From a phage: DNA of 2,853 nt. The notes under the pieces were generated by a model. The model ran no database searches and was not told where the DNA came from. It worked only from the letters and a program-made list of their open reading frames with translations. The translations under genes were made by a program, and so were the position numbers. Positions 690-771 of the stretch are shown here, in pieces. Within the stretch, counting starts at the first letter, position 1; each line of letters begins with the position of its first letter. The stretch lies in sequence record PZ049714.1; one strand, given 5' to 3'.

Positions 690-707
690 GGAATTCTCGG
701 GCCGTGA

Positions 708-735
708 ATGAAAAAGGGCCACCGCTGTGGCCCTT
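708..735 (-). terminator. Rho-independent terminator-like hairpin (9-bp stem, 4-nt loop, U-tract) oriented for minus-strand transcription
   Basis: Plus 714-722 aagggccac pairs perfectly with 727-735 gtggccctt, loop 723-726. On the minus-strand RNA this reads AAGGGCCAC-AGCG-GUGGCCCUU followed by UUUCAUU (plus 711-715 is A5). The plus-strand RNA has no U-tract after the stem, so the element is unidirectional. It lies downstream of prc (past the REP doublet) and ~20 nt upstream of the EAL start codon. Confidence 0.6.
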
Positions 736-737
736 CC

Positions 738-771
738 ATTTCACGGTTCGCAGATGTCAGCTTGATGACAG
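738..771 (-). promoter_or_regulatory. Candidate PhoB-dependent promoter: Pho-box-like tandem 7-bp direct repeats (754..771) plus a -10-like hexamer (738..743) upstream of the EAL gene
   Basis: Minus strand reads 5'-CTGTCAT-caag-CTGACAT-3' (plus 771..754), against the Pho box consensus CTGTCAT-N4-CTGTCAY: first repeat 7/7, second 6/7, 11-bp periodicity, but the spacer is not A/T-rich. Exactly 10 bp downstream is TGAAAT (plus 743..738), a 4/6 match to TATAAT. The box sits at the position where a -35 would be, which is the classical Pho-promoter architecture. No convincing sigma70 -35 is present. Confidence 0.4.

Follow-up and report, generated by a model that had tools for sequence, protein, structure and literature searches.

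A predicted PhoB-dependent promoter abutting a candidate terminator hairpin upstream of a rapA/PA3258-type gene in Pseudomonas and related genera

The window analysed here, a stretch of 2,853 nucleotides (nt) from the phage sequence record PZ049714.1, carries two genes, both on the minus strand, with an intergenic region of 426 nt between the stop codon of prc and the ATG of a gene for an EAL-domain protein. The upstream gene, prc (1116-2853), encodes a tail-specific protease with TSP_NTD, PDZ, Peptidase_S41, and DUF3340 domains; it enters the window at 2853 and ends with the stop codon at 1116-1118. The downstream gene (1-689), of the rapA/PA3258 type, is represented by its 5' part, which begins with the ATG at 689-687 and continues beyond the window edge. 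Its first 229 codons form an EAL domain (Pfam E=1.4e-48), the sole domain of that gene inside the window. Between the two genes lies the element under study, a pair of direct repeats followed by a -10-like hexamer, all on the minus strand, which a first-pass annotation had interpreted as a Pho-box promoter placing the EAL phosphodiesterase, and with it cyclic di-GMP (c-di-GMP), under phosphate-starvation control by PhoB.

The Pho box, the predicted site for a dimer of phosphorylated PhoB (PhoB~P), occupies 754-771 and consists of CTGTCAT (771-765), CAAG (764-761), and CTGACAT (760-754). Downstream of it, the spacer (743-753) comprises the ten bases CTGCGAACCG (753-744), and the -10-like hexamer TGAAAT (738-743) follows the box at a distance of exactly 10 nt. 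The consensus promoter scan found no TTGACA-like -35, whose place the box takes. Taking TGAAAT as positions -12 to -7, the box extends from about -40 to -23. On the strand that codes for the EAL protein, the box covers the stretch 65-82 nt ahead of the ATG at 689, and a Shine-Dalgarno-like GAGA (695-698) is found 5 nt upstream of that ATG, as in nearly all orthologs. The sequence, strand, and distances that the first-pass annotation had given for the repeats and the hexamer all hold. A search for CTGTCATN4CTGTCAT with at most 1 mismatch finds a single match in the window and none in any of 200 dinucleotide-preserving shuffles, and the match remains unique with up to 3 mismatches allowed. The window box departs from the Pho-box consensus at 1 position, compared with 2 for the phoA box of Escherichia coli K-12. 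Read as Pseudomonas monomers, GTCAT-CAAGCT-GACAT fits the PhoB motif of that genus, with A for T in the second monomer.

The identity of the downstream gene and the conservation of the element were examined through an ortholog scan that used one genome per species and yielded 80 loci, each a 6.7-kb stretch (L001-L080), from Pseudomonas, Stutzerimonas, Metapseudomonas, Ectopseudomonas, and relatives; a P. aeruginosa contig (L145) was recovered separately. The nearest loci, at 96-97% identity, come from P. lopnurensis (L001), a Pseudomonas metagenome-assembled genome, and a strain labelled Stutzerimonas stutzeri. The translated window protein has a complete EAL catalytic signature (YEAL, FLNASP, IELTE, LDDLGAGYS, VKID, and AEGIE) and is 74% identical to P. 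aeruginosa PA3258 across all 229 amino acids (aa) and 78-79% identical to the P. koreensis and P. fluorescens group orthologs. The RapA-type architecture with an N-terminal EAL domain, held possible in the first-pass annotation, is found in the P. lopnurensis relative, whose full-length protein is 97% identical, has 598 aa, and contains EAL, CBS (a weak match), and GGDEF domains. Two large homolog searches found this EAL-CBS-GGDEF order, with a length of about 580-600 aa, to be uniform through the family. Gene order is also shared: in 76 of the 80 loci and in the P. aeruginosa contig, the gene is preceded on its own strand by prc; the operon table of P. aeruginosa PA14 likewise places the tail-specific protease gene PA3257 directly upstream of PA3258 (Wurtzel 2012). 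PA3258 has been described as "an EAL-CBS-GGDEF protein" with RapA as its homolog in P. fluorescens Pf0-1 (PMC12900916) and as "a putative orthologue of RapA" (PMC9394441). Identity, domain order, and gene neighbourhood support orthology of the window gene to PA3258 of P. aeruginosa, a gene that published work identifies with rapA of P. fluorescens. The GGDEF domain carries GGDDF in place of GG(D/E)EF in both the P. lopnurensis locus (gene at 3001-4797) and the P. aeruginosa contig, a substitution that suggests weak or absent cyclase activity and would fit a mainly phosphodiesterase role.

Nearly all orthologs share a layout that can be anchored on the hexamer, xxGTCAT-CAAA-xxG(T/A)CAT-CAxT-CTGTCG-TGAAAT. 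The first-pass annotation had held that absence of the motif from orthologous loci would speak against a Pho box; a composite pattern, GTCA(T/C)-N6-G(T/A)CA(T/C)-N10-T(G/C)(A/C)AAT, is present upstream of the gene in 77 of 82 ortholog sequences, that of P. aeruginosa included. Scanning both strands of the 80 loci (~1.03 Mb) returned 75 composite matches, which equals the number of loci with the pattern upstream of the gene. Across 53 distinct sequences, information content reaches 1.2-2.0 bits per column in GTCAT (-38 to -34), in G.CA (-27, -25, and -24), and in CTGTCGTGAAAT (-18 to -7); the six columns upstream of the box stay below 0.8 bit, and mostly below 0.6. The hexamer TGAAAT is near-invariant, with TGCAAT and TCAAAT as variants. 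The mismatch in the second half-site, which the first-pass annotation had counted as a weakness, is real and at the same time a common variant, since GACAT occurs in 16 of the 53 distinct ortholog sequences. This conserved core coincides with the published specificity of P. aeruginosa PhoB, described as head-to-tail GTCA(C/T) monomers with 6 bp between them (eLife atlas) or as two GTCAT boxes (Bielecki 2015, PMC4513871).

A third direct repeat, CTGTCGT (-18 to -12), overlaps the first base of TGAAAT and is near-invariant in most of the loci from L005 to L080. Its CTGTCG is kept in 68 of the 77 sequences with the motif and is absent from the window and from L001, L002, and L003. Its conservation exceeds that of the outer bases in the two-repeat box, and it may represent a third PhoB site, a constraint on the spacer, or the site of another factor; lying across the start of the -10 element, it might add PhoB-dependent or competing control.

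Experiments on close relatives bear directly on the function of the element. In P. aeruginosa PA14, mutation of phoB lowers the PA3258 transcript by 2.37 log2 units (corrected P 4.9e-7), and the same work counts the gene among the PhoB primary regulon (Bielecki 2015, PMC4513871, Tables S3 and S5); prc is absent from all of its supplementary tables. In P. fluorescens Pf0-1, as the first-pass annotation had noted, PhoB-regulated RapA is known: PhoB~P is stated to occupy a Pho box in front of rapA (Newell 2011, PMC3032545). The transcript map of PA14 scores PA3257 and PA3258 as separate transcription units and detected no transcription start for PA3258 under the conditions of that study (Wurtzel 2012), as would be expected if transcription terminates between the genes and the promoter is silent in those conditions. 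The supplement of Gill 2018, which holds transcription start site data, has no PA3258 entry, and a literature search for start sites mapped at low phosphate produced no usable data. Among the probes for electrophoretic mobility shift assays listed in the eLife atlas is one for PA3258; the main text of the atlas names neither PA3258 nor the neighbouring probes.

The P. aeruginosa contig was retrieved with the published PA3258 forward primer for that assay as an exact pattern, followed by a reverse-primer filter on 120 mostly irrelevant metagenome matches; in a homolog search seeded with the M. otitidis ortholog, P. aeruginosa was not among the best 120 matches listed. The contig encodes an exact P. 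aeruginosa protein sequence in the cluster containing AAG06646.1/Q9HYY2, and its gene lengths and the 38-nt gap to a GTG inside CGTGAAAT match the PA14 annotation exactly. From prc onward it reads TGA, 11 nt, GCGTCAT AAAA CAGTCAT GGGA CTGTCG TGAAAT, hairpin, TTTTT, GAGA, and ATG. The 601-aa annotation of PA3258, in the style of PAO1 and PA14, almost certainly starts at the GTG in CGTGAAAT, within the -10 element, and its first 19 residues are the translated terminator hairpin. The ATG common to all orthologs lies 57 nt farther downstream and gives a protein of 582 aa, and both lengths occur in the P. aeruginosa cluster. The GTG was considered as the true start and rejected because, although in frame with the ATG in P. 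aeruginosa, it is out of frame in the window (55 nt upstream), and because the added residues merely translate the hairpin.

With orthology, conservation of the motif, and experiments in relatives all backing PhoB control of this EAL phosphodiesterase, the repeats at 754-771 are very probably the PhoB-binding site of the promoter of the window's rapA/PA3258 ortholog. When phosphate is low, a head-to-tail dimer of PhoB~P would occupy the two direct repeats, stand in for a -35 element, and bring RNA polymerase to the weak -10, TGAAAT, 10 nt downstream. The resulting expression of the EAL-CBS-GGDEF phosphodiesterase would lower c-di-GMP. By analogy with PA14 and Pf0-1, this control is inferred to hold in the window's species too.

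Several observations weigh against this assignment. The consensus promoter scan of the window reports no promoter at the site. The hexamer TGAAAT has G at its second position and so departs from the TAnnnT form of a sigma-70 -10 element; such elements almost always have A at that position, and the scanner missed the promoter because of this G. The spacer between the repeats, CAAG, has 2 of 4 A/T and is less A/T-rich than those of classic boxes, as the first-pass annotation had conceded; orthologs mostly have CAAA. The third repeat is degenerate in the window, where the equivalent GAACCGT (749-743) keeps only CGT, and likewise in L001, L002, and L003. No region from chromatin immunoprecipitation sequencing was found in Table S4 of Bielecki 2015 at the PA14 junction coordinates tried. 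The PhoB experiments themselves come from relatives (PA14 and Pf0-1), and the link to RapA (Pfl01_1678) runs through PA3258 and published statements. For comparison, PhoB/TctD co-regulated promoters of P. aeruginosa have been reported without strong -10 or -35 motifs (Bielecki 2015, PMC4513871).

The shortness of the site, the imperfect -10, and the negative consensus promoter scan are what one would cite for a functionless chance match in a G+C-rich intergenic region. That explanation has a practically negligible probability and is refuted by the conservation of the motif: none of 200 shuffles reproduces the box, its spacing is fixed across genera next to a hairpin whose sequence varies freely, and about 1 Mb of loci yields no matches beyond those counted upstream of the gene. 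It is also very improbable that the main protein to bind the repeats is not PhoB but, for instance, another response regulator of the OmpR family suited to direct repeats spaced by 11 bp, with the likeness to a Pho box incidental or due to shared use of the site. Such a regulator would account for the three repeats of most orthologs and for the third of them (CTGTCG) exceeding the first two in conservation outside their GTCA cores, and there is a precedent in the composite sites that PhoB and TctD share at some P. aeruginosa promoters (Bielecki 2015). However, the conserved core is exactly the PhoB monomer GTCA(C/T) at PhoB spacing, PA3258 expression depends on PhoB and the gene lies outside the reported PhoB/TctD co-regulated set (Bielecki 2015), and the window clade has lost the third repeat and retained the two-repeat box.

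Immediately downstream of the -10 element, a feature that the first-pass annotation had missed occupies the leader of the EAL gene. A G+C-rich hairpin (712-737, minus strand) is formed by GGAAGGGCCAC (737-727), the loop AGCG, and GUGGCCCUUUU (722-712). Its stem GGGCCAC/GUGGCCC is lengthened by A-U and G-U pairs and is followed by U5. This T-run (711-715, minus strand) reads TTTTT, then CATTC, and is partly paired with A/G bases at the foot of the stem. In a context of 71 nt, the hairpin folds at -33 kcal/mol with z = -5.1, and 0 of 200 shuffles are equally stable. The equivalent hairpin begins 0-2 nt past TGAAAT in all 79 motif-carrying sequences. Among 71 distinct ortholog sequences, the median stem is 15 bp and the median longest T-run is 7, with the ATG ~20 nt later, and the T-run has at least 5 T in 67 of 77 sequences. 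The median z of the hairpin against shuffles is -7.2 (73 distinct sequences), and several kinds of Watson-Crick pair are found at each rung of the basal stem across orthologs; the varied pair types and the low z together indicate selection for the fold and not for particular bases. These base-anchored rung counts and shuffle z-scores were used in place of RNAalifold, which predicted no pairs on a MAFFT alignment of 39 leaders, the alignment being defeated by variation in stem length. A consensus terminator scanner did not report the hairpin in the window, probably because the extension of the stem uses up the T-run. The Rfam scan (E up to 10) gave noise only, far under gathering scores, with no known riboswitch or small RNA.

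In most loci, the distance from prc to the ATG is only 82-150 nt and is occupied by the module of box, -10, and hairpin, so that the hairpin is the only candidate for an intrinsic terminator of prc in most orthologs. From position and structure, the hairpin and T-run are accordingly regarded as a candidate intrinsic terminator of prc. If they serve prc in this way, the PhoB promoter is flanked by the stop codon of prc on one side and by its terminator on the other. Geometry then offers a possible way for the promoter to avoid the terminator. The transcription start is predicted at 729-732 (minus strand), 6-9 nt past the -10, from sigma-70 geometry and the position of the hairpin, and it falls inside the 5' arm. 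A PhoB-driven transcript would begin 5-8 nt into that arm, without the basal pairs that bring the stem to the U-tract. Modelled with a start at +7 in the window, such a transcript has a 5-bp stem of -7.6 kcal/mol, compared with -17.9 kcal/mol for the full stem, and its stem end moves 5-6 nt off the end of the full stem at the U-tract; in the window clade as a whole, the modelled truncated stem is only 4-6 bp.

Under plentiful phosphate, read-through from the constitutively expressed prc would form the full terminator and stop, leaving rapA silent, and PhoB-initiated transcripts, unable to form the base of the stem, would pass the terminator. These transcripts would carry a 5'-terminal stem-loop, possibly a stabilising one. 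We hold this start-site-dependent bypass, in which prc read-through is stopped and PhoB-started transcripts pass, as a tentative proposal that falls somewhat short of probable. Equally tentative, and to be taken as conceivable more than expected, is the broader proposal that, in Pseudomonas and related genera alike, the prc terminator has had the rapA PhoB promoter deliberately joined to its front end, giving one hairpin two jobs. The insertions of the window clade and of L063 leave the unit from box to T-run intact, and none was seen inside it. In Burkholderia pseudomallei, whose penA leader contains the nlpD1 terminator, termination was complete for a promoter 134 bp upstream of this terminator, one centred 24 bp upstream escaped it, and a natural -10 that was created at -78 lies right against the hairpin (-73 to -25) (PMC6045580).

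Against the bypass stands the P. fluorescens group, in which the truncated transcript would retain 12-15 bp of stem, with U7 beginning 2-3 nt beyond it; by modelling, this stem could still terminate a substantial fraction of transcripts. The same fact lends weight to a different explanation, namely that the hairpin and T-run attenuate PhoB-driven transcripts as well, so that many end ~25-45 nt downstream, with the terminator either setting a high threshold or being relieved by some factor, as at frd/ampC. All 79 motif-carrying sequences do have a hairpin and T-run separating the -10 from the ATG, the stems of the P. fluorescens group survive 5' truncation at 12-15 bp and about -20 kcal/mol, and there are precedents in the E. 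coli ampC attenuator, which is the frd terminator, and in the penA attenuator, which is the nlpD1 terminator (PMC6045580). Yet the leader is too short for an alternative anti-terminator structure, the truncated stem of the window clade is just 4-6 bp, and the PhoB-dependent level of the PA3258 transcript in vivo means that a useful share of transcripts passes. In the sole direct test, moreover, a promoter abutting a terminator escaped it almost completely (PMC6045580). Attenuation is judged rather unlikely overall, and more plausible in the P. fluorescens group, where the modelled truncated stem stays at 12-15 bp, than elsewhere.

In the minimum-free-energy structure of the window, an outer stem (702-746, minus strand) pairs CCGUGAA (746-740) with UUCACGG (708-702) and encloses the hairpin and most of the -10; it is specific to the window, L001, L002, and L003. 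In read-through RNA, this modelled stem would tie up the -10 region. The T-run has disappeared from L003, and L004 (Stutzerimonas) has lost the promoter module, with just the 3' half of the hairpin left. In L045 (Stutzerimonas), a different gene stands upstream in place of prc. The repeats of this locus have decayed to TTGTCAT-CAGA-TTGCAAC, its hexamer reads TGGAAT, and no T-run follows its hairpin. The joint absence of prc and the T-run there fits a T-run that serves prc, although it is a single case. L063 carries a 119-nt palindromic insertion, similar to repetitive extragenic palindromic (REP) elements, between the T-run and the ribosome-binding site, with the box, -10, and hairpin intact upstream.

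The window, L001, and L002 share a repeat-rich insert of ~300 nt between the prc stop and the box; the L003 contig ends before this region. In the window, the insert lies within 780-1115 and contains, especially at 910-992 and 1063-1079, a nested REP-like palindrome, TGTAGGAGCCGGCTTGCCGGCGATCG ... CGATCGCCGGCAAG ... CTCCTACA, and a second palindrome, GGTGCGC-GGA-GCGCACC. It folds far better than shuffles (z = -4.7), and the version in L001 differs by a 14-nt indel. Within prc, at ~2492 (minus strand), the window has one extra base in a GCCGG run relative to the 98%-identical P. lopnurensis locus, which causes a frameshift and splits the gene into two open reading frames (1116-2471 and a second frame upstream). 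This frameshift could be a sequencing error or reflect a genuine prc pseudogene.

The PhoB promoter is a correct and well-supported prediction that belongs to an already known system, as PhoB regulation of this gene is established in relatives and the window adds a further case. Judged from sequence alone, the control that phosphate starvation exerts on c-di-GMP by way of RapA/PA3258 is conserved far outside the two tested species and reaches the P. stutzeri-like lineage of the window, with a site defined precisely enough for footprinting and reporter design. The conserved layout of a promoter on a terminator is the only potentially new element. If the proposed bypass is true, it would be a conserved natural case of start-site-dependent terminator bypass that insulates a tightly regulated gene in an intergenic gap of <100 nt, and, if the layout works in this way, a compact insulation design of interest to transcription mechanics and synthetic biology, for which a mechanistic precedent exists.

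Among known systems, the closest is rapA of P. fluorescens Pf0-1, which shares a Pho box before a c-di-GMP phosphodiesterase gene and activation by PhoB~P in low phosphate (Monds 2007, as described in Newell 2011, PMC3032545). The comparison uses the published description of the Pf0-1 box, and the equivalence of that box with the window box is presumed. The P. koreensis and P. fluorescens group orthologs have the same module of box, -10, and hairpin. The window clade differs from Pf0-1 rapA in the 300-nt repeat-rich insert between prc and the promoter and in the loss of the third repeat, and the downstream LapD/LapG/LapA pathway may differ in the window lineage. PA3258 of P. aeruginosa resembles the window gene in its EAL-CBS-GGDEF order, upstream prc, repeats, 10-nt spacing, TGAAAT, hairpin, T-run, and GAGA-ATG, and differs in its box (GCGTCAT-AAAA-CAGTCAT), its intact third repeat, and the 11 nt from the prc stop to the box. 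The window box, CTGTCAT-CAAG-CTGACAT, is nearer to the E. coli consensus than is the PA3258 box.

The promoters of the E. coli phoA/pstS type likewise combine two 7-bp direct repeats at an 11-bp period with the lack of a -35. In the K-12 sequence, phoA has CTGTCATAAAGTTGTCAC, 10 nt, and TATAGT, so the distance from box to -10 is the same as in the window, in agreement with the likeness to phoA spacing drawn by the first-pass annotation. The -10 of phoA is TATAGT in contrast to TGAAAT, and its spacer is A/T-rich in contrast to CAAG. For the hairpin, the nearest parallels are frd/ampC in E. coli and nlpD1 TERM 264/penA in B. pseudomallei (PMC6045580), in both of which the terminator of the upstream gene lies between the promoter and the start codon of the downstream gene. 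The penA case is alike also in that the -10 abuts the hairpin and that a promoter so near to it escapes termination (PMC6045580). Those two systems concern constitutive or mutational beta-lactamase promoters, whereas the abutting promoter described here is conserved and regulator-dependent, with an offset of 0-2 nt across the genus and a putative bypass function.

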